Below are positions 1,745-28,096 of a DNA stretch of 64,000 nucleotides, piece by piece. The position numbers and the translations under genes were made by a program. Numbering within the stretch: position 1 is the stretch's first letter; each line of letters begins with the position of its first letter. The notes beneath the pieces were generated by a model. It had not been told where the DNA came from, searched no databases, and saw only the letters and a list, made by a program, of their open reading frames with translations. This DNA is from a candidate division WOR-3 bacterium (GTDB lineage: Bacteria > Hydrothermota > UBA3073 > JACQXS01 > JAGMCI01), in NCBI GenBank assembly GCA_023129325.1, contig JAGMCI010000017.1:13252-77251 (forward strand), given 5' to 3'.

Positions 1745-4700
1745 TTATTTCAGCAAGATGATTTTCCTTGTGGCAACAAAAGACCCAGCACTAAGACGAT
1801 AGAAGTAAATTCCATTAGCTACTTTTTCACCATTTGAATTCCGAGCATCCCAGGTTGCAGTATAGCTGCTTGGCTTGCGAATTCCATTGACAAGTGTAGT
1901 AACAAGTCTTCCAGTAAGGTCATAGACTTTAAGAGTAACCTTGGCAGTCTTGGGAATTGAATACTGAATAGCAATTGTCCTGTTCATAGGATTAGGATAG
2001 CCCTGGGATAAAGCAAATACATTTGGACTTGTAGATATTTCCTCAACTCCGGATGCGTTAAAGGAATAGAAATTGGAAATAGTATCTGCATTTGCTGGGT
2101 CTGTTGCTTGATTTGTAGGATTGGCACCATCAAAAGCTTCATAATAATATCTAATTACCGATGCACTGTCTATTTTGGGAATATCATTTTCATATATATC
2201 ACCATAATGTGGCATCGTTATACATATCCAACCACTATCATGAGTTACACGGAAGTAATGTAAGAAAGCTGAATCTACACCAGATGGGTCTTGAACTATG
2301 GTGGAACAGGGAAACGGCCCTTTAGAGTCTGTGTCAGTCCAAATCATGCTTTCAGAGAAAGTTGGTCCTTCGTTATCATTAGCACAAATTGTGAAAAGAC
2401 TGAAACTTTCAATTTTACCCGTTACCTTATTTTGAGCTGTGTCAACCGTGCTCTCAATCTCTTTCCATGTTGGGTCATCATATTTATATATTGAAATAGA
2501 AGATTCGTTATATCCAGCTGCATCCTGGTCTCTGTAGCAAAAAGTTAAATCTATGCTGTCTGCAAGTGCGATATCAGATGCTATATTAACTGCAAATTCA
2601 AGCCATTCCTCAGGTAAGCTATCTAACATTGAAGGTGTAGGATTTAATTCCTGGTCTATACCTATCTTTGCATTTGTTGAAAGAGCGCCGTCTGGAATTG
2701 ATAACCCTATCTTTCTTCCACCATTTTTAGTTCCTGTGGTAATTATATCAAAAGAATACTCTCCTGTATCTGCTAAAGTAACTACCCATTCTTCATCTGC
2801 AAATTCACTTTCCTGGCCCTCATCACTATAAGCAGTGCAAGTTATATATTTGTATTCTCTAAGACCAGGTGCCCCTAAAGTTTCAAGGTCATATTTAGTT
2901 ACATTTCCTACATTAACACTATCTGAATAACCTTTTCTGGTTGAGTTTCCATAGAATAATTTATAGCCCGAAATATTAGGTTCAGGATTTGGATTCCATA
3001 CAAGCTCACTATCTGATGCGAAATTCCAGGCAAGTCCAGTTGGCTTTGAAGGTGCTGCTCCAAATATGAGTGTGAGCCTTGAGTAAGTCCCATATCCAAA
3101 TGTCCCATCTCCTACTGTGTAATAGGCAGTAGGCTCATATTCCACGCCAAGACTATCCTCCCAGATTTTAAAGTGCATTGTATCTCCAACTGTATAACCA
3201 TCTTTCTCTGGTGTATTAGGGTCATCTTTCCAGACAAGGAAATCAGTAAATCCCCACCAGTAATTAGATGCTCCAACGCAAACGCCATCTGTAGTAAACA
3301 CACCTATGGCGTCGTCTATATCAAGTTCAAATGTATCAATGGAAGCAGAATCAATTACTATAGTATAAAAACTATCAGTTTGAGTAAAAGTATAATGTGG
3401 GTCAGGCTCCCAATGCCCTTCTGTATCTAAGCTATCTACTTCTACCATATAATTCCATTGCACATGGTCGCTCCACATAGAAGGGGGTGTTACGGTAATT
3501 CTTGCTGGGTCTGGCACTGTATAACCAATGTAAATTGTTCCAGGATTTCCAACTGAAGATGCCTGACGAGCCATATGGGGAGTCTGTTCAGGGATTTCTA
3601 CTGTCTTAACTATTGTTGTAGGATAACCCCAGGTACGTCCAGAATCAAGTGAAACAGAAGCATAAATATCCTGATAGTAATAAGGTTCTCCTATTGTTGC
3701 GTTATACTGACTCTCTATCAAATCGGTATGAGGTCTGTCTATCCAGGCGGCATAAAGTCTTCCATGGTCATCAAATGATATATCAACTTCATTTAAATTT
3801 TCAATCTGTCCAGCCTCATCTCCCACAAACCATCCATTATTAAAGGCTATTCTTGATGCTTTCCAGGTAGCTCCTAAGTCTATTGAGTATATACAATAAA
3901 TACCTTCATGTTGAGGTAAAGGATAATAATAACCACCACCAACATCTTCTCCATGTATAATTGTAGCTCCAAAATAAATAGCATTAGTTTCATCATTTAT
4001 GTTAGCACTTTGAGCCCAGGTAAAGCCACCAACATTTACGCCTGAAATTTCATTTGGGATACCAATGTCAGATGGCTTGATATGTTTAACCTCAGACCAG
4101 GTTTCTCCATAATCATTTGTAGTACTGTAAATAACCCAGAAGTCACTAAATTCAGGTGTATGTCCTGTGCACATCCAGATTCCAAATCCATCTTTTCCAT
4201 AAACAAATTGAGGAACATTCATTTCAGGGATATCAGATGGTGTAATGTCCAATTCAGGGACATTCCATGTCCAGTTAATACCATCAGGAGAAGTTCCATG
4301 AATAAATGTATAATATCCTTCATTTAACTCTCTTTCCCACAAACCACCAATATGCCATAAAGTATCGCCAGCCAATACCATATCCACCATCCCGAGCCAG
4401 AGGGAATGAATGACCCCCGGGTCACCGTTTTGAGCCATATCCTCAGGTATAGTCCAGAAACCCTCACACCAGCCCTCCTCGTCTAACGACATATAAGCTC
4501 CAGCTACAGTTTTTTGCTTACTAAAATATTCAGTCCAAAATGCATAGGGATAGTTTGGAGTAGCACAAGCGGCTGGATATCTACCACTTCCCACACAAGG
4601 GGTTGTATTTATATTTCCATGAACGCATCTATTATGCAGTTCCCCCATTGTTTCCCAAGCAGCAGCTCCAATTTCACCACTTGTTGATTCATTAAACTTT

Positions 4701-5089: not shown

Positions 5090-8000
5090 TATCGAATTAA
5101 AAGCATCTTCTTTGTTTGAACAAAGCTTCCTGCTTCTAAACGATAGAAATATAAACCACAAACTACCTTTTCTCCCCTTTTGTTTTTTCCATTCCATACT
5201 ACATTATAATGTCCAGGTTGCTGTCTTTCGTTCACAAGAGTAGTAACAAGTCTTCCAGTAAGGTCATAAATCTTTAAAGAAACTTCACACGGACACGAAC
5301 ACGTATAACGAATCACGGTTCTCTGAGTAAATGGATTTGGATAGCTCTGAGATAAGGCAAAGGTCTTTGGAATATCTGTTGCTTCTTCAATCCCGACTTT
5401 CAGGTTAAAAGAATAGAAAGAGTTAGGTGCATTTTGAGGGTCAGTACTCGTATTTGGAGGGGATGCTTTATCAACTGCAGACAGATAGTAATTTATTTTT
5501 GTATCTAATGGTTGTTCTGGAATTTCTGCAGAATAACCATCGGTGCCAGCAATGGTATCCATAGGGATAGAAATCCATGGGGAATCTACATTTGTTCTAT
5601 ACCAAAGAGTAGCGGATTCAACGCCCGAGTAGTCTGTAATTGTTGAATTTATGAGAAAGGGTCCTACAAAACTTGTATCAGGCCATAGTGTGGTTTCAGA
5701 AAAACTTGGTCCTTGAGTATCTATACCTCCAGTTATAGAGACATCTTCATAATTTCCTGTCCGATACGGATTTCCGCGATACATATTCCAGTAAACACTG
5801 CTATTCCAGGGGTCTTTGTAATCAATTACTTGCATTCCATTTGAGTTACCAACTGCAATTTCAAGGTCTCCATCTCCATCTAAATCCCTGATACAGGGCG
5901 AAGATTCAATTGAACCATTAGTATTTATGGGAAACCCTGTTACGAGTGAGCCATTGGTATTAAGTGCATATAATTTCCCATCATTTGAACCAACTATAAT
6001 CTCAGGCTCCCAATCACAGTCAATATCAGCATATACTGGAGATGATTCTATACTGCCACCAGTGATATAAGGGAATCCAGAGATTAAATTGGCATTAGCA
6101 TCAATTCCATAAATATTATTATCACTGGACCCAAAGAAAATTTCTGGAATACTGTCTCCATCAATATCACAAAATGAGGGTGAACTCCTTATTTTATCAC
6201 CTGCTGTAAAAATGCCTACTGTGTCACCTTTATAATCAAAGATATAAAGTTTTCCATCATCACAACCACACACAATTTCCAATTTTCCGTCTTTGTCTAA
6301 ATCTGCTAATGCAGGAGCACTCTTGATTGTTCCTCCAATTAGTTGAGGCCAACCAGGTAGTATACTGTTATCTTTTGAAATAACATAGAGCTCTTTGTCG
6401 TATGTTCCTACTACTATATCAAGAGTTCCGTTTCCATCAACATCTCCAATTGCGGCTCCAGACCAAATTTTAGTGCCCAAATTACGAGGGAAAGTTCCAA
6501 AGTTTGTAGAGTCATAATTTATCACATAAAGGTTTCCTGAATAATCACCAAATATTATTTCTAATGTATCGTCATTATTTAAATCAGCTAATGCAGGAGT
6601 GGAAAGAATATAGCCTTGAGTTTCATATTTTAAAAGTAAAGAATCATCATTGTTTATAATATATAAGTTCTTATCTTTTGAACCAAATACAATCTCAAGG
6701 TCTCCATCTGCATTGACATCTCCAATTGCTGGGGCGCCCCAAATTTCATTTCCAACCACCATTGGGAACCCAGGTTTTGTAGTTGCTATTGGGTCCCATG
6801 CCCATAAATTATTATTAAAATCACCAGCAATAACTTCAAGTTCACTATCATTATCAATGTCAATAATAATTGGAGGCGACTTTACTTTTGCTCCTAAATT
6901 AATGGGCCAATGCTTTTGGTTAAGGGTTGACTCAATTTCAAATGCAAATGTATCTGAATATGGATGTTGACTTCCCAAGTTGGCAGAAATGACTATATTA
7001 AAATGGATTATACTTGGTGGAAAATCTAAAATCTTGACTTTAAAACCTTTAAAATTCACTGCTACAGACCCACCGTTAATTTTACCAAAAGAGGAACTTG
7101 AATTTATAATTGTGATTTGTGAATCTGGAGAAGATAAAGTACCTACTGCATCATTTGCAGTTCCCCACCCGGATTCATTTTTTATCACTACATGAATATT
7201 TATTATTTCTCCTGGATTTATAAGGGAATCACCATCTCCAATTAATTCTTGTGCGATATATGATTGATAAATTAACTCAGGGTAAAGGCGATGTATAAAT
7301 GTATTGTAAATATTTATTCTACCTGCTCCTAAGAATCCCTTGTAAAAAGGATTAATATCATCAATATTATCACATCCAGTAAGTATTTCTTGTTCAAGCC
7401 AGATATTAGACGAGTCAGGATAAACTGATTTAAGTAGTGCGAAACAACCTGATGCTATAGGAGCCGAACCAGAAGTTCCATCCCAAGAAACTTCTCCTCC
7501 AATCTCAAGATAAGCAGTGCCCCAGATTCCTGATGCAGGAGCGCAGCAATCAACCCAGGAGCCATATTGAGAGCCTCCCCATTTATAGTCCCCAGGAGAT
7601 GTCCCTGCAATTGCCATGCAATTATAATAAGCTGCTGGATAATTAGGTTCTGAAGTTCCATCATTTCCAGCTGAGGCACAAATTACAGCACCATAAACAT
7701 TATAAGCCACATTAATTACAGATTGCCCTGCTGAGCTACCATACTCACCACCCCAACTACAATTTATAATATCAGCTCCATTTTCAGCTGCATATCTAAT
7801 ACCTGAATAGCCATCCGAGACATGCTGGGGGTCATCATCTTCACAACATTTAATAGGCATTATTCTTACTTTCCAAGGAACAGATGCAATATATAAGTTA
7901 TTATTAGTTCTTGCATCTGCTATTCCAGCAGTCCAGGTCCCGTGCATACAATAATCCCAGGGGTCTGTATCTGGATTTCGGGGAGGTCCTTCAGGATTAT

Positions 8001-8679
8001 TATCACTTTCTCCAAAATCCCACCCAATGAGGTCATCTATATAACCATTATAATCATCGTCAACTCCATTTAAGTCGTCTGGGTCAAGAACCCAGCTTTC
8101 ATCAATATATTCAATTGTATGTCCATCTCCATCAGCATCTTCGCCAAGATTCTGCCATATATTATCAATTAAATCAGGATGGTCCCAATCAACACCTGAG
8201 TCAGTTATCCCAATAATTATGGTTGTATCACTGGGTGGTTCATCTGGCTCAAATAAGGTCCAGGCTTCAGGTGCATGGACTGCAAATAGATGCCATTGGT
8301 CTGGAAAACGAGGGTCATTTGGAGAGTCATTTTGAGGATTAAAAAATTCGGCCCTAGGTTCAAATTCAGCAAAGATTAAGTTCTTATCATCTGAAAATTT
8401 AGTAACAGCTTCCTCAATATTTTCTTTTAACTTTAATCTATAAATCTTTGTTAGATAGATATCGCCATCTTTATCTTTCTCTTTTGCATCAGAAAGCCAG
8501 CGTTCCATTTCATAGACCTTATGCTTTTGGGCGAGTTTGTCGAAAGAGGGAAGTTTAGTAGTTATATATTCACCCTTCTTACTAATTTCAGGTTTTATAT
8601 TAGGTTTAAAACAAACAAGCAATTTACCCGGGTAATAACCATTTCCCGCAATTATTATAAACCATAATAATACTTGCAT
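5089..8679 (-). CDS. subtilisin-like S8 serine protease fused to a 7-repeat FG-GAP/VCBS propeller and a T9SS C-terminal sorting domain
   Basis: Catalytic triad motifs GITDSGVDWDHPDL, HGTWTAGIA and GTSGSAPIASG. Repeats of type GDVNADGDLEIVFG, ADLDKDGKLEIVCG and RDLDGDGDLEIAVG. C-terminus YPNPFTQ...KIYDLTGRLVTTLVN...GLYFYRL. SD GGAGGT lies before ATG 8679. Confidence 0.85.
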   Translation of the reverse strand: MQVLLWFIIIAGNGYYPGKLLVCFKPNIKPEISKKGEYITTKLPSFDKLAQKHKVYEMERWLSDAKEKDKDGDIYLTKIYRLKLKENIEEAVTKFSDDKNLIFAEFEPRAEFFNPQNDSPNDPRFPDQWHLFAVHAPEAWTLFEPDEPPSDTTIIIGITDSGVDWDHPDLIDNIWQNLGEDADGDGHTIEYIDESWVLDPDDLNGVDDDYNGYIDDLIGWDFGESDNNPEGPPRNPDTDPWDYCMHGTWTAGIADARTNNNLYIASVPWKVRIMPIKCCEDDDPQHVSDGYSGIRYAAENGADIINCSWGGEYGSSAGQSVINVAYNVYGAVICASAGNDGTSEPNYPAAYYNCMAIAGTSPGDYKWGGSQYGSWVDCCAPASGIWGTAYLEIGGEVSWDGTSGSAPIASGCFALLKSVYPDSSNIWLEQEILTGCDNIDDINPFYKGFLGAGRINIYNTFIHRLYPELIYQSYIAQELIGDGDSLINPGEIINIHVVIKNESGWGTANDAVGTLSSPDSQITIINSSSSFGKINGGSVAVNFKGFKVKILDFPPSIIHFNIVISANLGSQHPYSDTFAFEIESTLNQKHWPINLGAKVKSPPIIIDIDNDSELEVIAGDFNNNLWAWDPIATTKPGFPMVVGNEIWGAPAIGDVNADGDLEIVFGSKDKNLYIINNDDSLLLKYETQGYILSTPALADLNNDDTLEIIFGDYSGNLYVINYDSTNFGTFPRNLGTKIWSGAAIGDVDGNGTLDIVVGTYDKELYVISKDNSILPGWPQLIGGTIKSAPALADLDKDGKLEIVCGCDDGKLYIFDYKGDTVGIFTAGDKIRSSPSFCDIDGDSIPEIFFGSSDNNIYGIDANANLISGFPYITGGSIESSPVYADIDCDWEPEIIVGSNDGKLYALNTNGSLVTGFPINTNGSIESSPCIRDLDGDGDLEIAVGNSNGMQVIDYKDPWNSSVYWNMYRGNPYRTGNYEDVSITGGIDTQGPSFSETTLWPDTSFVGPFLINSTITDYSGVESATLWYRTNVDSPWISIPMDTIAGTDGYSAEIPEQPLDTKINYYLSAVDKASPPNTSTDPQNAPNSFYSFNLKVGIEEATDIPKTFALSQSYPNPFTQRTVIRYTCSCPCEVSLKIYDLTGRLVTTLVNERQQPGHYNVVWNGKNKRGEKVVCGLYFYRLEAGSFVQTKKMLLIR

Positions 8680-8680
8680 A

Positions 8681-8761
8681 TTCTACCTCCTTTTCCACCG
8701 TTCTTATTAGTTTATTTGCCAGAACGGTGAGAATCCCGCACCCGTTAGCTAACGGGTGCGG
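8681..8761 (-). repeat. two-hairpin leader element plus SD, copy A (diverged), upstream of the S8 protease gene
   Basis: Sense: CCGCACCCGTTAGCTAACGGGTGCGG...CACCGTTCT-loop-AGAACGGTG-GAAAAGGAGGT-ATG. Confidence 0.8.
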
Positions 8762-8766
8762 AGTAA

Positions 8767-11550
8767 TTACTTTAAAATTATCAACTTTTTTGTAGCCTTA
8801 AAATTATCAGTCTCTATTTTTGCAAAATAAATTCCTGGAGCAGTTCCTGATGCATCCCAGTTTACAGTATACTGACCAGCTTCTTTTCTTGCATTAACTA
8901 ATGTTTTTACCAATCTGCCAGTCACATCGTAAATTTTTAAAGAGACCTTACTAATGGTTGGTAGTTGATACCTAATAGCTGTTGTAAAACTAAACGGATT
9001 TGGATAGTTTTGAAACAAGAAATAAGTTTCTGGAGTTTTCTGTTCTTCCCCTCCAGTTTTACCAGAAGCTGTATCAACAAAAGTTCTAATCATCAAATCA
9101 TAATTTAATCCAAGTTCTGTGAATTTACCCCATTCTCCATTTACGCAATACCAGGCTCTATCGTCAATTGGTAAGGTGGCATCTATCCCTATTGAAGGAG
9201 TTGATGGTAATTCTTGCAGTCCAACATAGAAATCTCCAGAACTAAGCACAATATTTTCAGGCTCTACCTCAAGTTCATTCCAGCCTTCTATTACAGATAC
9301 AGTGTCTGAATAAAGTTCATTCAGGGGTGCTTTCTCACTGGAATTCCAGACTTTGGCAATGAAATCGCCTTCTCCTGTATTAACATAATATTCAAGGACA
9401 ATAAGCTTTGTAGGATATTTATCAGGGGTAAATCTCGCTGCCATATAATGAGAAGTTCCAACATTATAACCAGCATAAGGATTACCGGCATCGTATTTGA
9501 TTTCATAAACTGTAGGTGGATTTGGCATAACTTCAATAGGATAACAATAGCGACTTTCGCCTTTTTGATAAACAGCACTAACCGCATAATAATAGCGTTG
9601 CCGATTTACTACATTAGTATCGAGATAAAAGGTATCGGTAAGTCCTTTTACAAAAGGAGCTCCAAATGATGTTCCCTTCTCTCGTTTGTATAAATTATAA
9701 CTTAATGGAGTAGGTATAGTTGTATCTATTTCCTCAATTTCAGCCCTAATCATCATATTCATAGTAGTAAAAATTGCCCATCCATTATCCCAGCAATAGC
9801 TCCTATACACAGCTGAGCCATCATCCAGCGCTGGACCCCATTGACCACTTCCCATATTATCTATTCCAATATAAAAGTCTCCTGAATCTATTTCAATTCC
9901 ATAAGAAGATAAATCTATTTCATCACATTCCGTATTAGAGGCACGGCTTGGCATTAATTTTTCAATAGTTAGAAGTTTATGCCAGGGAGCTCCAGCACTA
10001 TCATCCCAGATTACAAGGTCGTAAGTTTCATTAAATGTTTCACTTACAGAGATAAAATTAATTATTGCTCTTGAAAGTTTAGCTGGATGGTCTAATGTGA
10101 ACCTGACAGCATAAGGTTGAAGAGTATTATCTACATAATACAGGGTGTCGCTAGTTTTATCTTTATCATAAAAAAGAATCTTAAAAGTTGGGCTCCAGGT
10201 TAATTTAGCTTGATTATCTCCAGTTTCTGCGTGAAGGTTAGATGGAGGATGAAGTTCACGCTCAGTGAGAATTACAAAATCATCCATAAACATACCATCT
10301 CCTAATGGCTCTCCATACGATACGACGATGATTCTAAATTGGATTTTTCTCCCAGCATATTTTGTTATATCAAGTTTTATATCAGGGTACATACTAAAAG
10401 AATACCATATATCATCTTGAAGGATAAAAACATAAGGAGTCGGATTTTCCCAGGGACCTCCATCTATTGAAATTTCTGGATAAAAATAATCAGCATACTG
10501 GTCCGGGACATGGTGTAAGTGTCCTTTCATCGAGAAATCCCATGTTACTTTTGGTTCATCCGGGACTATAATTATAGGTGATATAATAGCATCTTTTAAA
10601 AATGCCTTATAAGTAGTATCAGTGATACAGCATCGTGCACAATGTGTTGGTGAAGGAGCATCTGTTGCTTCTTCCAGATGCCATATATCACTACCAGTAG
10701 CTGATATAGAGGCAGTGGTAAACTCAAGTGTATCGTCCCCTTCGGCATTGCTTGTAAATACATGAGCTACATCAATATTATCTATTTGCCAGCCAATTAA
10801 ATCAGGATTGTATCCTCCTTGTTGGTCATAAGTACAATATGCTGGGTCTGAAGCAAATGCCCACCTGATTTTTACAGTATCTCCAGCATAAGAACTTAAA
10901 TTGACAGTAACATTTTCCCATCCGTCAGAACTTCCACCCCAACCAGGTATTCCTGGTCCTTCACCATGTTCGTATCCAAAACTATAGAAACTCCTACAAT
11001 TGTAGGCGGGACTTACATATGGAGTGTCTAAAACTGTCCAGGTAGCTCCTCCATCAGTCGAGATTCTCACATTACAGCCATCCCAACTATCATAAGGAGG
11101 CTCGGCACCAGCTGGGTCTTCCATTTTCCTATTCTGAACAAATGTAAGTGTGCAAGAGGTGGAAGGTAAAACAATTTCACGGGTATCTAAAACTTGATAC
11201 CAGTGGTTTAAATAACCACGAATAGTATCACCAAGTTCTTCTATATAAATATAATCTCCCATCCACCATGATTTTCCAGTCCCTTCATAGGCTTGAAATG
11301 TATCTGGGTGCCATACAGGAGGATAAGGCACATTTAAGTCCTTATGAGCCCATCTCATTCCTGACTCAAAATTTTCAAGATAAAAAGTATCCAGTCTTGT
11401 AATGTAAAAATCTTTACTTTTAGAAACCTCGTGAATTGTTTTTTCCAGAGATTGCTGAGAGATAGTCTTTATTCCAGAGGGGGGAGGATGTTTCTTTACT
11501 TGCTTAATATTATAAGAACTCGTTGCTAAAATTATAAATAACCATAACAT
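8767..11550 (-). CDS. large secreted protein with FN3-like segment and a T9SS C-terminal sorting domain; catalytic function unknown
   Basis: 927-aa ORF with SD AAAGGAGGT before the ATG. N-terminal hydrophobic MLWLFIILATSS. Contains PPSNLHAETGDNQAKLTWSP. C-terminus FQNYPNPFSF...KIYDVTGRLVKTLVN...GIYFAKI. Confidence 0.7.
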   Translation of the reverse strand: MLWLFIILATSSYNIKQVKKHPPPSGIKTISQQSLEKTIHEVSKSKDFYITRLDTFYLENFESGMRWAHKDLNVPYPPVWHPDTFQAYEGTGKSWWMGDYIYIEELGDTIRGYLNHWYQVLDTREIVLPSTSCTLTFVQNRKMEDPAGAEPPYDSWDGCNVRISTDGGATWTVLDTPYVSPAYNCRSFYSFGYEHGEGPGIPGWGGSSDGWENVTVNLSSYAGDTVKIRWAFASDPAYCTYDQQGGYNPDLIGWQIDNIDVAHVFTSNAEGDDTLEFTTASISATGSDIWHLEEATDAPSPTHCARCCITDTTYKAFLKDAIISPIIIVPDEPKVTWDFSMKGHLHHVPDQYADYFYPEISIDGGPWENPTPYVFILQDDIWYSFSMYPDIKLDITKYAGRKIQFRIIVVSYGEPLGDGMFMDDFVILTERELHPPSNLHAETGDNQAKLTWSPTFKILFYDKDKTSDTLYYVDNTLQPYAVRFTLDHPAKLSRAIINFISVSETFNETYDLVIWDDSAGAPWHKLLTIEKLMPSRASNTECDEIDLSSYGIEIDSGDFYIGIDNMGSGQWGPALDDGSAVYRSYCWDNGWAIFTTMNMMIRAEIEEIDTTIPTPLSYNLYKREKGTSFGAPFVKGLTDTFYLDTNVVNRQRYYYAVSAVYQKGESRYCYPIEVMPNPPTVYEIKYDAGNPYAGYNVGTSHYMAARFTPDKYPTKLIVLEYYVNTGEGDFIAKVWNSSEKAPLNELYSDTVSVIEGWNELEVEPENIVLSSGDFYVGLQELPSTPSIGIDATLPIDDRAWYCVNGEWGKFTELGLNYDLMIRTFVDTASGKTGGEEQKTPETYFLFQNYPNPFSFTTAIRYQLPTISKVSLKIYDVTGRLVKTLVNARKEAGQYTVNWDASGTAPGIYFAKIETDNFKATKKLIILK

Positions 11551-24668: not shown

Positions 24669-25298
24669 TTATATCAGATGCAGCCAGTTATGTAAAAGAA
24701 AATATATTCTTCCAATTAAAAGGGATAACCTTGCCATAACTGTGTATCCAAAACTTGCCCCAAATGATACCATTATGAATGCCATGCCTATTTTAACTGG
24801 AGGTTTTAATAACCCCTTGTGTTCTTTGGAAAAATAAAAAAACAGAAATGTGGTTAACACACCAACAACAAGAATGATATTATTAGCACTTTGTATTAAG
24901 TCTCCCTTAATAAAGAGTGGTAAGAAAGTAGCTTTTGTCTGTGGCAATATATATCCATGAATGCCAGCTACTATCCCTATTCCTGCTCCAATTCCCATAG
25001 TAAAAGCAATAGACCATCTTGAAATCCAGCCAATTTTTGGATGTATACGGAGAAGCATAATTACCCCTAAAAAGGTCGGTATAATTAGTATCCATCTTGC
25101 AAGCCCAGTTTCTGCAATGAATTTATCAATTAACATAGGTTTAATGTTAAAAAAGTAAAAATAAACAAGCATATAGGCCGCAGATGAACCAACATAAAGG
25201 TGTTCAGCAAATTTGTAGAGTGGATTGTCCTTGTAAAGAAATGAAAAAATACAAAGCGTCAAAAAAGCCGCAACCCAAATCCCAATAATTTCAGCCAT
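24669..25298 (-). CDS. polytopic membrane protein, uncharacterised (gene 4 of a 4-gene membrane operon)
   Basis: About six hydrophobic helices. Start set to ATG 25298 (MAEIIGIWVAAFL) because the 14 upstream codons are encoded by a TAACCAA heptamer array. Confidence 0.55.
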   Translation of the reverse strand: MAEIIGIWVAAFLTLCIFSFLYKDNPLYKFAEHLYVGSSAAYMLVYFYFFNIKPMLIDKFIAETGLARWILIIPTFLGVIMLLRIHPKIGWISRWSIAFTMGIGAGIGIVAGIHGYILPQTKATFLPLFIKGDLIQSANNIILVVGVLTTFLFFYFSKEHKGLLKPPVKIGMAFIMVSFGASFGYTVMARLSLLIGRIYFLLHNWLHLI

Positions 25299-25304
25299 AG
25301 TAAT

Positions 25305-25361
25305 GAACGGTGAGTGGTTAAATGGTGAGTAATTAACCAATTAACCAATTAACCATTTAAC
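25305..25361. repeat. (TAACCAAT) array plus GGTGAG module, inverted copy of 21169..21217
   Basis: GAACGGTGAGTGGTTAAATGGTGAGTAATTAACCAATTAACCAATTAACC. Confidence 0.8.
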
Positions 25362-26179
25362 TATTCTTTCTCCCTCTTTTTTAATATAAAGTAACTAAGA
25401 TTACCTAAAATTATGAAAATTATTATTGCTATGTGTCCCGCAGATTGTGCTGTCATCCCAATGATTCCAGCTCCCGGGCATTCAACTAATTTCTCATATT
25501 CTGCTGCCCCCTTTAATCCGCCAATAAGTCCCTCAATCTGTTTGGCTTGAAGATAAGGATAACAATCAGGAGCACAAACAGCAGTACAACCAAGAGTTAT
25601 TTTTTGTCCAAATTGTGCACCAGCAAGTCTAACCCAGTAGTCGCCAGTTGCTCCTGCTTCAAATCCAATAAGTAAAGTAATATCTCCATAATTATGAACT
25701 CCTTTCATTATATCAAGTGAATCAACAGGAGTCCCAGCATAATCAGAAGCAAAAAAATCTCTTATTTCTCTACCTATCCCAAGCATAATAGCTGACATCC
25801 CTGGGCGATAACCAAGATTGACATAATCTTGACCATATTTTTTGTCATATTCTTTAGCTGTTACCATCAGTGCATCTTGCCCTAAAGGAAAACCAAGAGG
25901 CCAATGACACATCATAATGACTTTCAAATTCTTCTTAAAAGCATGCCTCAAGACAGCAATTAACATTGGTTGCAGTTCTGGTTGAGAAGCAGGGTCATAA
26001 TCAACAGAAAAAAGAACGCAAGAACCCGACTCAAGTTTCTCCAGCGCCTTATAAGCTGATTTCACCGGGGCACTAACCCTAATTTCAAGAACTGTTTTTG
26101 TTAAAAATGGTATTATGATACAAAGAACAATAACAATAAAAATAATCCTTCTATCTATATTTGCTATTTTTTTCAACAT
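25361..26179 (-). CDS. bitopic membrane protein with a large soluble domain, uncharacterised (gene 3)
   Basis: N-terminal TM (IIFIVIVLCIIIPFL) and C-terminal TM (IAIIIFIILGNLSYFIL) flank a ~210-aa domain. By eye the domain looks distantly similar to the C-domain of the 26903..28015 product. Confidence 0.55.
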   Translation of the reverse strand: MLKKIANIDRRIIFIVIVLCIIIPFLTKTVLEIRVSAPVKSAYKALEKLESGSCVLFSVDYDPASQPELQPMLIAVLRHAFKKNLKVIMMCHWPLGFPLGQDALMVTAKEYDKKYGQDYVNLGYRPGMSAIMLGIGREIRDFFASDYAGTPVDSLDIMKGVHNYGDITLLIGFEAGATGDYWVRLAGAQFGQKITLGCTAVCAPDCYPYLQAKQIEGLIGGLKGAAEYEKLVECPGAGIIGMTAQSAGHIAIIIFIILGNLSYFILKKREKE

Positions 26180-26183
26180 CTCA

Positions 26184-26213
26184 CTTCCTACTGCTTACTG
26201 CCTACTCCCTACT
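26184..26213. repeat. heptamer array CTTCCTA CTGCTTA CTGCCTA CTCCCTA
   Basis: It is the reverse complement of the GCAGTAG family seen at 20824. Confidence 0.8.
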
Positions 26214-26846
26214 TTATTTTAAGTATGTTCTTTCAATCCCAAGTATAATTCTAAGAGAAGTAGCAATCATTCCAAGAGCAACGCCAATAAGTATTCCCCG
26301 CTTAGCCGCAAGTTGAGGTATATTCATAATCCATTCAGCAATAATAGGTAATTTGTTCCATATCAGATTACCTACTGGGACTCTTCCAATCATAACTAAT
26401 ACACCTGCAATTAGCAATAGTGTGGCTTCAATAGTTCTGGCTCTAAAAGCTCTATAAGCAGCACTTGCAATAAAGAAAGCAAGCAAAGAAAACATAGTAG
26501 CCGAAAGAGGAACAAGAATATTATTATAATACCACATAAAAGGAGTCCCGAGTTCAAACAGCCCTTTATATTTTATACCTGAATAAAAGCCAACAACCAG
26601 AGTCCCAAGCATAGCACCAATTAAAATAACTGAATACCCAAATCCTTGAGTGCGTTTAACAATTCTTCTTGTATGAATTCTGGTTAATGTCATAAGACCT
26701 AAAACCATAGTGAAACCAGCAATAATGGCATACCATTGCAAGAACATAGATTGAAGTCCACCGATTGGGTCATGAGGGATAAAGAAACCAATGATGAGGA
26801 GGAACCCTGTAATAAAGGTAATAGCTAAAGGAACTTCTCTTCTCAT
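26214..26846 (-). CDS. polytopic membrane protein, uncharacterised (gene 2)
   Basis: Five to six hydrophobic helices. Start set to ATG 26846 (MRREVPLAITF) because the upstream MRDSLRKE codons overlap the TCCCGCAC hairpin repeat. Confidence 0.55.
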   Translation of the reverse strand: MRREVPLAITFITGFLLIIGFFIPHDPIGGLQSMFLQWYAIIAGFTMVLGLMTLTRIHTRRIVKRTQGFGYSVILIGAMLGTLVVGFYSGIKYKGLFELGTPFMWYYNNILVPLSATMFSLLAFFIASAAYRAFRARTIEATLLLIAGVLVMIGRVPVGNLIWNKLPIIAEWIMNIPQLAAKRGILIGVALGMIATSLRIILGIERTYLK

Positions 26847-26862
26847 TTCTTTACGAAGGCTA

Positions 26863-26887
26863 TCCCGCACATAAATTATGTGCGGGA
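26863..26887. repeat. solitary TCCCGCAC...GTGCGGGA hairpin
   Basis: TCCCGCACATAAATTATGTGCGGGA, identical to hairpin 1 of leader copy B. It lies between two genes of the membrane operon. Confidence 0.85.
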
Positions 26888-26902
26888 CGGCTACAGACCA
26901 TA

Positions 26903-28015
26903 TTAAAAGCCACTAAACCAGTTAATAAAATTAGAAGCTGATGTTTTTAAAATTCCAAAACTACTTAAGCTTGCTAATAATATTCCGATACTTATAACTA
27001 TGATAATAATAAGTTTAACGAAATCCTCTCCTTTTATGCTTCCGAGCAAAGTTGGTTCTTTTGATAAATATGATGAAGCGGCATACATTTCTTCCCCAAT
27101 AAGAGTGTAATCACATGCGGCAACAAAGAATGGCAGTTGAGTGGTAGCTGGAGTTCCTGCAATTTGGATAGCGCCAATAGAATTTCCTGTTTCAGCTAAC
27201 AATAATGATTCAGCAAAAAAATAGCCTTGCAAGAAGACGGCGCCAGGCTTTTCTCTAAGCATAATACCATTAACTCCAGCGGCATAGCCAAATTGGTCAG
27301 CAGTGAGGTAAAATATTTTTGATTCATTATAAGTATCAGGTCTTCCGGCTTCCATATGAGCTTGTTTAACGACTTCTTGGGCTGCACTCATAACAATTGG
27401 GTCATAACAAGGGACTAACAAAGGGGTTCCATAGGTAGCTGCTCTTTTAGCCACTCTTCCAAGTATTGACAAACTTGCAATTGTGGCGACATCGCTCATA
27501 TCAGAGAGTCCTGTGAGATAAAGAATAGGTTTTCCTGATTCTGTAGCTCTTCCGACGGCATCATCAACAGCCTCAAGCCCTGAAATTTTGCGTATAAAAA
27601 GAGACCCACCGTGTTTAGCTTTCTTTATATACCAAAGCACTAAACCACAAAAAACAATCCCTAAGATTAATGCGTTCCATCTTTTATGGTGGAACCATTG
27701 AGCATAAGATATCACTGGACCAAGTGGTTCAGAATCTGCAAAGTCTGTAGGTGAGACCGCCCTAACTTTATACCAATATTTTTCCCCATCTTGTGTAGAG
27801 TCATCAAATTTATTTAACCCTCTTAAAACGATACCTCTTGAATAATATTCGTGTTTTTTATCTGTAGTTCTAAAAACTTCATAATAAGAAAGTACGGAAT
27901 CATCAGGAGAAAGCTTCCACTTTATAGAGATAGATTTTCCTTTGTCGTTAGGAGTATCAAATACTTGAACATTGAGAGGAGGGGAGAGTTGGAGTAAAAA
28001 AATCAATAAAAACAT
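26903..28015 (-). CDS. membrane protein: signal/FN3-like ectodomain, TM, ~200-aa domain, C-terminal TM; uncharacterised (gene 1)
   Basis: MFLLIFLLQL signal. FN3-like KGKSISIKWKLSPDDSVLSYYEVFRT...YWYKVRAV. TM ALILGIVFCGLVLWYI. C-terminal TM LIIIIVISIGILLASL. Confidence 0.6.
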   Translation of the reverse strand: MFLLIFLLQLSPPLNVQVFDTPNDKGKSISIKWKLSPDDSVLSYYEVFRTTDKKHEYYSRGIVLRGLNKFDDSTQDGEKYWYKVRAVSPTDFADSEPLGPVISYAQWFHHKRWNALILGIVFCGLVLWYIKKAKHGGSLFIRKISGLEAVDDAVGRATESGKPILYLTGLSDMSDVATIASLSILGRVAKRAATYGTPLLVPCYDPIVMSAAQEVVKQAHMEAGRPDTYNESKIFYLTADQFGYAAGVNGIMLREKPGAVFLQGYFFAESLLLAETGNSIGAIQIAGTPATTQLPFFVAACDYTLIGEEMYAASSYLSKEPTLLGSIKGEDFVKLIIIIVISIGILLASLSSFGILKTSASNFINWFSGF

Positions 28016-28060
28016 TACTCCAAATATACAATATTTTATTCAGGTGTCAAGATTTTTTTG

Positions 28061-28089
28061 TTGACAAATGACATTTTTAATAATATCAT
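28061..28089 (+). promoter_or_regulatory. sigma70-like promoter TTGACA-17-TATCAT; ATG 8 nt downstream of the -10 (leaderless)
   Basis: TTGACA at 28061-28066, TATCAT at 28084-28089, ATG at 28097. No SD lies in between. Confidence 0.55.
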
Positions 28090-28096
28090 TATTAAG

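Follow-up and report, generated by a model that had tools for sequence, protein, structure and literature searches.

What could a group of four adjoining membrane-protein genes be for, when three of their products belong to no family and none of the four has a studied relative? The question is raised by a locus in a 64,000-nucleotide (nt) stretch of DNA from a candidate division WOR-3 bacterium of the Hydrothermota (assembly GCA_023129325.1, contig JAGMCI010000017.1, positions 13,252 to 77,251; the whole stretch is called the window below), where genes that we call G1, G2, G3 and G4 follow one another head to tail. An initial annotation, made from the sequence alone, had taken them for a dedicated envelope complex of two apparently paralogous bitopic proteins and two polytopic partners. 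Our analysis supports an uncharacterised dedicated membrane unit, which keeps its gene order across phyla, belongs to no known family of transporters or enzymes and resembles no studied transporter or machine, but it does not support the paralogy of the bitopic proteins. We propose that G1 to G4 supply the membrane part of a translocation system linked to an ATPase, the cargo probably being nutrients taken up by the cell, and we give this reading a probability of about 0.4.

The four-gene cassette

The four genes are conserved together. In the best 80 of more than 554 loci with a G1 relative (from a scan of one genome per species), tblastn finds the order G1-G2-G3-G4 in nearly every locus that has enough sequence. 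These 80 loci are labelled Stahlbacteria, Zixibacteria, Poribacteria, Ignavibacteria, Fermentibacteria/Aegiribacteria, Edwardsbacteria, Eisenbacteria and Coatesbacteria, and relatives of the proteins carry the additional names WOR-3, Hydrothermales and Latescibacteria. When the 92 G1 genes that have enough sequence behind them were scored by strict automatic criteria, 75 proved to lead a complete cassette, the median gaps being 10, 9 and 5 nt (the gaps in the window are 32, 34 and 20 nt); the incomplete remainder is mostly accounted for by split or filtered open reading frames (ORFs), and four G1 genes are solitary (L031, L050, L077 and L081). Two or three cassettes stand in tandem in many genomes. 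The neighbourhood check that the initial annotation had proposed thus came out in its favour: the genes are co-conserved, in the same order, across at least eight named phyla, and no protein of the four was assigned to a known transporter or enzyme family.

The spread of the cassette can be followed through G1, a full-length member of Pfam family DUF6754 (PF20539; 398.8 bits against a gathering cut-off of 27, profile positions 3-251 of 257), which is matched by all 104 aligned G1 relatives. DUF6754 is a sequence grouping without an assigned function that covers G1 only, not G2, G3 or G4; its members are usually annotated 'fibronectin type III domain-containing protein', and a literature search found no mention of DUF6754 or PF20539. 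It occurs in 135 of the 151 sampled genomes (75 of 76 genera) of the window's phylum, usually in 2-5 copies, and in all 251 genomes sampled from the phylum to which an Ignavibacteria-labelled locus belongs, mostly in 4-6 copies; it is absent from 14 of 14 well-known control genomes. In genomes of only 2-4 Mb, between 8 and over 20 genes belong to cassettes. The source genome itself has a second full G1-G2-G3-G4 cassette, on contig C2, diverged from the window copy, and in a concatenated tree the two fall into different old clades, each common to other lineages, which makes their duplication an ancient one.

One ORF of 739 amino acids (aa) that joins DUF6754 to a peptidase S49 part (L077, 8004-10223) was set aside. 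Towards the C-terminus it consists of the latter half of an SppA of Zixibacteria type (about 805 aa), DUF6754 was found in none of the best 120 SppA relatives and, because no other protein that we found has both domains, we treat this ORF as a local chimera, a misassembly or a recent rearrangement.

Two of the genes are also joined naturally. In a metagenome-assembled genome of the Planctomycetaceae G3 and G4 are fused (two near-identical 598-aa sequences, 9 contigs), with exactly one additional hydrophobic helix joining both parts, and this extra helix fits an arrangement in which G3 ends inside the cell and G4 starts outside. An apparent G3-G4 fusion in L035 was rejected, as it consists of two same-frame genes split by a stop codon.

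The GlmL-like ATPase and its partner

With what might such a unit work? Among the loci examined almost no neighbour is conserved apart from one set of genes: in 24 of the 80 loci the cassette adjoins genes for a GlmL/MutL-like ASKHA protein (PF13941, about 600 aa) and for a partner of about 375 aa. The usual order there is gcvT-gcvP-small-small-GlmL-partner-G1 and onwards, and in one genome of the window's phylum the series GlmL-partner-[G1-G4]-[G1-G2-G3...] runs along a single strand. The GlmL-like protein and its partner are themselves fused, into proteins of 947 and 949 aa, in the window's phylum and in Aegiribacteria. Both gene sets are present in five of five tested genomes from other phyla, adjacent in four of them, and within the window's phylum, where 135 of the 151 genomes have DUF6754, the GlmL-like gene is found in 134, with three genomes discordant. 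The two sets are also lost together: in g20, the one genus of the phylum without the cassette, DUF6754, the GlmL-like gene and the partner are each found in 0 of 15 genomes, GcvP being retained in 12 of the 15, and because the sister genera have cassette and GlmL set on separate contigs or with 19 kb or more between them, this loss took at least two deletions.

The source genome has the GlmL-like protein, the barrel-sandwich partner and the small upstream protein of these loci, none of them adjacent to a cassette: there are two GlmL-like-plus-partner pairs, on contigs C18 and C14, and a 106-aa homologue of the small upstream protein on C18 (E = 3e-23). The initial annotation had recognised no ATPase, transporter or enzyme motif, which stands for the four genes themselves but is incomplete for the system, since the candidate ASKHA ATPase partner is encoded on other contigs. 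On C18 (L089, 3375-5864) some 2.5 kb lie between the GlmL-like gene and the gene for the small conserved protein; judged by eye, they encode two pairs of small nucleotidyltransferase/HEPN-like genes and a secreted protein that ends in a sorting-type tail, and they look like an insertion into an ancestral operon because the flanking genes are adjacent in other phyla. On C14 (L090, 4266-5885) a gene for a GatA-like amidase, with an in-frame run of 7-residue repeats (GSGKWEV..., GQKSEVR...), overlaps the second GlmL-like gene.

The GlmL-like protein matches PF13941 with E = 2e-126, keeps the phosphate-1, phosphate-2 and adenosine motifs of the ASKHA fold and has a mean identity of 64% across phyla. 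It should not be read as the helper of a B12 mutase, because it scores 232 bits against a GlmL equivalog cut-off of 475. Its partner has weak matches to the barrel-sandwich families RnfC_N and NqrA_N (E = 2e-5 to 5e-4, below cut-offs). A role for the partner as a lipoyl/biotinyl carrier was rejected, there being no conserved Lys at the hairpin tip in 23 relatives. PDB sequence searches with the GlmL-like protein and its partner returned nothing, and in the literature searched GlmL was named in one unrelated paper.

We propose that the four genes encode one heteromeric inner-membrane complex, in which G2 and G4, with about six helices each, would be the membrane core; G1 would provide an exported fibronectin type III (FN3) stalk, two helices and a highly conserved Rossmann-like domain on the cytoplasmic face; and G3 would contribute another pair of helices together with a Rossmann-like domain of a different kind, on the outer face. 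This complex would most likely work with the GlmL-like ATPase, which has the actin (ASKHA) fold, and with the barrel-sandwich protein paired with it, both of which probably dock on the cytoplasmic domain of G1. The likeliest job of the whole would be to carry a small nutrient, probably one that contains nitrogen, through the inner membrane in an ATP-coupled manner, with the less conserved outward parts (the G3 domain and FN3) giving each paralogous cassette its specificity.

The rates at which the parts have diverged are consistent with such a division of labour. Mean pairwise identity across cassettes is 65% in the G1 cytoplasmic domain, which is the most conserved part of the module, 47% in G2 and in G4, 40% in the G3 outer domain and 31% in FN3, so that the G1 domain and the GlmL-like protein are equally slow-evolving and the outward-facing parts stand at 31-40%. 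This pattern of a slow cytoplasmic face and faster outer parts, with 1-2 ATPase pairs for 2-6 cassettes, would be expected of a shared cytoplasmic component that serves several modules of differing specificity. The informative neighbours lean to amino-acid metabolism (glycine cleavage, amidase, lipoate ligase). In a bolder form of the proposal, which we put forward tentatively and with the odds against it, the cassette would provide the membrane portion of an ATP-driven translocator of a new class: an ASKHA ATPase as motor, with a barrel-sandwich protein as adaptor, would be shared by several paralogous four-subunit modules with different outward-facing domains, in a system kept across many bacterial phyla.

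Several points weigh against an ATPase-linked translocator. Transporter signatures are absent from all six proteins, and we know of no ASKHA ATPase that drives a transporter. The family alignments of G2 and G4 hold no conserved acidic or charged residue mid-membrane, and the fold search with G3 gave generic Rossmann-like matches only (best Foldseek E-value 1.2e-3). The ATPase copies, 1-2 per genome, do not track the cassette copies, 1-6 per genome, and in the source genome the GlmL-like pairs lie on contigs other than those of both cassettes. The co-loss in g20 is suggestive, not statistical, because it concerns a single lineage, and its statistical weight is small. Moreover, the GlmL-like pair could be an enzyme of a pathway that uses the module's substrate.

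This last point opens onto the alternative that survives best, namely that the cassette is a self-sufficient secondary (ion-coupled) transporter or channel, and the GlmL-like protein with its partner a cytoplasmic pathway enzyme and not a motor. Such a transporter would explain why the cassette stands without the ATPase pair in 56 of the 80 loci, as it does in the source genome, and why the copy numbers of the two differ. The closest Pfam relatives of the GlmL-like protein, which are ATP-dependent hydantoinase/oxoprolinase-type enzymes and GlmL, would suit it as well, as would the neighbours from amino-acid metabolism (the glycine cleavage genes, the amidase that overlaps the second GlmL-like gene and the lipoate ligase). 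However, nothing in the cassette matches any secondary-transporter family, the lack of conserved mid-membrane charge in G2 and G4 counts against this reading too, and the extreme conservation of the G1 domain is more readily understood if the domain has a conserved protein partner or is catalytic than if it regulates passively. We consider a self-sufficient transporter rather unlikely, and prefer the ATPase-linked translocator.

Predicted architecture of the four proteins

The four tightly spaced, same-strand genes described by the initial annotation lie exactly where it had put them, on the minus strand (Table 1), and its layouts for the four products also hold in the models and profiles that follow. 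AlphaFold2 models of G1 and G3, built from alignments of about 100 sequences, are of high confidence.

Table 1. Positions, in the window, of the four genes, of the promoter-like site and of the domains and transmembrane (TM) segments of G1 and G3
Feature	Position	Strand	Extent	Remarks
G1	26903-28015	minus	370 aa	ORF
G2	26214-26870	minus	218 aa	ORF
G3	25361-26179	minus	272 aa	ORF
G4	24669-25340	minus	223 aa	ORF
Promoter-like site	28023-28050	minus		TTGACA, 16 nt spacer, TATATT; 11/12 consensus matches
G1 FN3 domain	27710-27976	minus	aa 14-102	predicted extracytoplasmic; lowest conservation in the module (31% mean pairwise identity)
G1 first TM helix	27614-27688	minus	aa 110-134	followed by a Lys/Arg-rich stretch
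G1 alpha/beta domain	27062-27583	minus	aa 145-318	six beta-alpha units, Rossmann-like; predicted cytoplasmic; 65% mean pairwise identity
G1 second TM segment	26954-27016	minus	aa 334-354	
G3 first TM segment	26084-26146	minus	aa 12-32	preceded by nearly invariant R10, R11
G3 alpha/beta domain	25484-26071	minus	aa 37-232	six strands, Rossmann-like; predicted extracytoplasmic
G3 second TM segment	25388-25450	minus	aa 244-264	conserved polar Q245, H249, N260

The model of G1 (predicted local distance difference test score, pLDDT, 94.5) has the FN3 strands at residues 14-102, a helix at 110-134, the alpha/beta domain at 145-318, then a long helix (321-352), within which the second hydrophobic stretch lies, and last a short helix. 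PDB profile matches to titin FN3 (E = 4.7e-16) agree with the model, and G1 thus has the layout FN3-like ectodomain, TM helix, domain, TM helix that had been read from its sequence. The number of FN3 units per G1 relative runs from none to several. In L084 (G150; 6763-8886 and 2396-4429), where the gene after the tandem cassettes encodes a polytopic protein of 677 aa that by eye looks like a glycosyltransferase with a TPR tail, a paralogous G1 of 707 aa has, again by eye, several FN3-like repeats before its DUF6754 part.

The N-terminus of the window G1 (27965-28015) is a short uncharged hydrophobic stretch, MFLLIFLLQLSPP, and several relatives start likewise; the C2 copy has a canonical signal peptide with a Lys-rich n-region ahead of FN3 (L003, 5050-5140). 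Given these differing N-termini, the two old cassette lineages may be targeted differently.

The PDB sequence profile search with G1 returned FN3 domains only, and in the fold search against two libraries all 50 listed matches were FN3-type or long poor fits. None of the listed matches covered the alpha/beta domain, which leaves no PDB match to the DUF6754 domain at an E-value below about 1e-4. Its invariant residues include R156, T158, E159, Q241, E269, E275, Q284, Q293, D302, E308 and E309. In the Rossmann-like domains of both G1 and G3 the invariant residues sit at the C-terminal ends of the strands, which is where Rossmann-like folds bind their ligands.

G3 is a TM-domain-TM protein, as initially described: its model (pLDDT 96.1; predicted template modelling score, pTM, 0.91) places helices at 10-27 and 237-271 around a six-strand alpha/beta domain (37-232), and a Lys/Arg-rich tail follows. 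The domain has the conserved motifs SxDYDxxSxPELQPM, LGYRPG and GGLxGAAEYE, and the family comprises 5405 representative clusters at 50% identity. A PDB sequence profile search with G3 found nothing, and the weak matches from the fold search are a mixture of GT-B glycosyltransferase halves, LOG/MoCo-carrier-like proteins, KTN and eIF2B, with root-mean-square deviations of 13-15 A over long alignments. A GT-B glycosyltransferase was considered and rejected: each protein has a single domain, no fold match is significant, and the domains of G1 and G3 lie on opposite predicted faces of the membrane. Some G3 relatives (P0381, P0476, P0415 and P0361) carry large insertions at one loop, at about profile positions 100-112, in the form of CARDB repeats, HEAT repeats or a helical domain, and one protein has the whole domain tandemly duplicated.

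Export of G3 as a tail-anchored protein by the twin-arginine translocation (Tat) pathway, with the RR before the first helix as signal, was also rejected: RR becomes RQ, RH, RG, NR or SR in several relatives, and TatC was not found in the source genome (89% complete) or in four of five relatives that are 96-100% complete. The genomes without a TatC hit are the source genome (G000) and the near-complete G006, G007, G024 and G045 of the same phylum, and TatC is present in one other, G148; the window's phylum seems largely to lack the Tat pathway.

G2 has six hydrophobic segments with alternating loop charge, which gives six predicted TM helices with both termini predicted inside and bears out the 5-6 helices first counted; a conserved motif reads ATMFSLLAFFxASAAYRAFRAR. 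In G4, described at the outset as having about six TM helices, the family hydropathy profile has four strongly hydrophobic segments and two weaker ones judged by eye, and the protein probably has about six helices with its N-terminus outside. Its conserved motifs are SFLYKDNPFYKFAEH, YFFFSKEHKG and FGASFGYTVMAR.

As to sidedness, we infer from the sequences that FN3 is extracytoplasmic, the G1 alpha/beta domain cytoplasmic and the G3 domain extracytoplasmic, because of the signal peptide of the C2 copy, the Lys/Arg that follow the first helix of G1, and the RR and Lys/Arg tail of G3. The charge distribution in the family profiles agrees with this topology. We take CARDB repeats to be normally extracytoplasmic, and those inserted in the domain of one G3 relative fit an extracytoplasmic G3 domain.

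Family searches add little beyond DUF6754. G2, G3 and G4 have no match among PDB sequences. Neither Pfam nor NCBIfam has a family match for G2, G3 or G4, or an ATPase, transporter or enzyme family match for any of the four proteins, and 67-104 relatives of each protein, scanned singly, gave scattered sub-threshold matches only, as is usual for hydrophobic proteins. The ATP-binding cassette (ABC), energy-coupling factor (ECF), major facilitator, phosphotransferase system (PTS), tripartite ATP-independent periplasmic (TRAP) and other transporter families were rejected for the four proteins, among which there is no model match and no P-loop subunit.

The suggestion that the bitopic G1 and G3 are paralogues found no support. 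BLASTP of G1 against G3, and of G2 against G4, gave E-values of 0.1 or worse; hhalign, run with shallow profiles (27-32 sequences for each family) and again with deep ones (about 100), gave a probability below 4% for every pair of the four families; and a profile comparison of the G1 and G3 domains alone scored 15.2, against 13.9 for a reversed-sequence control. Paralogy of G2 and G4 was likewise rejected, BLASTP and hhalign giving no signal. The resemblance that had been seen by eye between G1 and G3 comes from a shared order of elements only (TM helix, helix, six beta-alpha units, TM helix), an order that is present in the models yet common among many Rossmann-like folds, and the two domains are predicted on opposite membrane faces. 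A deep common ancestry of the domains, through an inverted duplication, is conceivable, though we have no positive evidence for it.

Genomic surroundings and known systems

Does the location of the cassette say anything of its function? On one flank of the window cassette lie a TonB-dependent receptor gene and then tonB (TonB_C), two exbD genes and exbB (MotA_ExbB), the immediate downstream neighbour of G4 being a lipoate-protein ligase gene; on the other, divergently transcribed, are SLBB and Wzc-like genes for extracellular polysaccharide (EPS) export. The cassette on C2 is neighboured by a site-2 protease gene and a sugar dehydratase gene. The placing between TonB and EPS genes was thus described correctly by the initial annotation, but it carries no weight, because the flanking genes are not conserved in other genomes.

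A site scan found no terminator-like hairpin inside the four-gene block or immediately 3' of it. The promoter-like site upstream of G1 is a consensus match only, of a kind no commoner in the region than in shuffled sequence; because it ends 8 nt before the G1 start codon, the G1 mRNA may be leaderless or nearly so. G1 and the divergent SLBB export gene are separated by 42 nt (window 28016-28090), and the SLBB side has its own sigma-70-like match (11/12, plus strand), inside the annotated start of the SLBB ORF.

These envelope genes figure in a further explanation, that the cassette is an envelope biogenesis or export machine for a polymer, lipid or protein, with the FN3 stalk reaching toward the wall or outer membrane. 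The exported stalk, of no to several repeats, is consistent with such a machine, as are the EPS export and TonB genes near the window cassette, the site-2 protease and sugar dehydratase genes beside the C2 copy, the TM-domain-TM layout that G3 shares with polysaccharide co-polymerases and the GT-B halves among the weak G3 fold matches. Yet the envelope neighbours are not conserved, FN3 is missing from some copies, no Wzz, glycosyltransferase or flippase family is matched, and 2-6 diverged copies in a small genome would be unusual for a core assembly machine, so that we regard this explanation as improbable.

Still less probable is a membrane redox or ion-pumping enzyme, loosely analogous to Rnf/Nqr, to which the subunit layout (parallel to NqrD/E, NqrC and NqrF) and the weak RnfC_N/NqrA_N matches of the soluble partner might point. 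There is no match to the Rnf-Nqr family, the alignments hold no conserved Cys or His cofactor motif and no Cys cluster, and G3 lacks the [ST]GAT flavin-attachment motif; a folded, cofactor-loaded G3 domain would, moreover, not be exportable, because TatC was not found in the source genome or in four of the five near-complete relatives. A sensor or signalling complex, which would use the G1 domain to signal inside the cell that an extracytoplasmic ligand is bound and would suit both the multiple diverged copies and the ligand-site-like conserved patches at the C-terminal strand ends of two domains on opposite membrane faces, is the least credible of all, as there is no known output domain and no regulator or kinase gene among the conserved neighbours, and twelve polytopic helices exceed what a sensor usually needs.

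If the ATPase-linked translocator is right, an ASKHA ATPase coupled to a membrane complex would be a transport or energy-coupling principle without precedent. The module is widespread, being found in many other candidate phyla and often in several copies, and solving it would improve the metabolic reading of much uncultured bacterial diversity; the labels 'fibronectin type III protein' for G1 and 'glutamate mutase protein L' for the ATPase would be worth dropping once the module is worked out.

Several known systems resemble parts of this one. The proposed ATPase, encoded outside the window, is related to GlmL/MutL, the accessory protein of coenzyme-B12 glutamate/methylaspartate mutase (PF13941, NF040745), and to Or-4, a protein of the ornithine pathway; it differs from GlmL/MutL in being about 130 aa longer, in being paired or fused with a barrel-sandwich protein instead of a mutase and in co-occurring with a membrane cassette. 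G3 is like the Wzz/Wzc co-polymerases in its predicted order of N-terminus inside, TM helix, extracytoplasmic domain, TM helix and C-terminus inside, but has no Wzz family match and, in place of a helical bell, a compact six-strand Rossmann-like domain.

The module as a whole recalls Na+-NQR and Rnf, which have two six-helix subunits of about 200 aa, a bitopic subunit with an outward domain and a subunit with a cytoplasmic domain, and the barrel of its soluble partner is weakly similar to NqrA_N/RnfC_N; the likeness is one of architecture alone, as the module lacks any sequence relationship to them, their cofactor motifs and a subunit like NqrB/RnfD. As a working analogy, with no claim of membership and no homology to ECF, ABC or PTS components, we use transport systems whose several membrane modules depend on a common energising module, namely the group II ECF transporters and the PTS, in which EI/HPr work with many EII complexes. 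Like these, the module would have its two to six membrane cassettes served by one or two ATPase pairs, and its cytoplasmic domain on the putative docking side is far more conserved than the parts that face outward.

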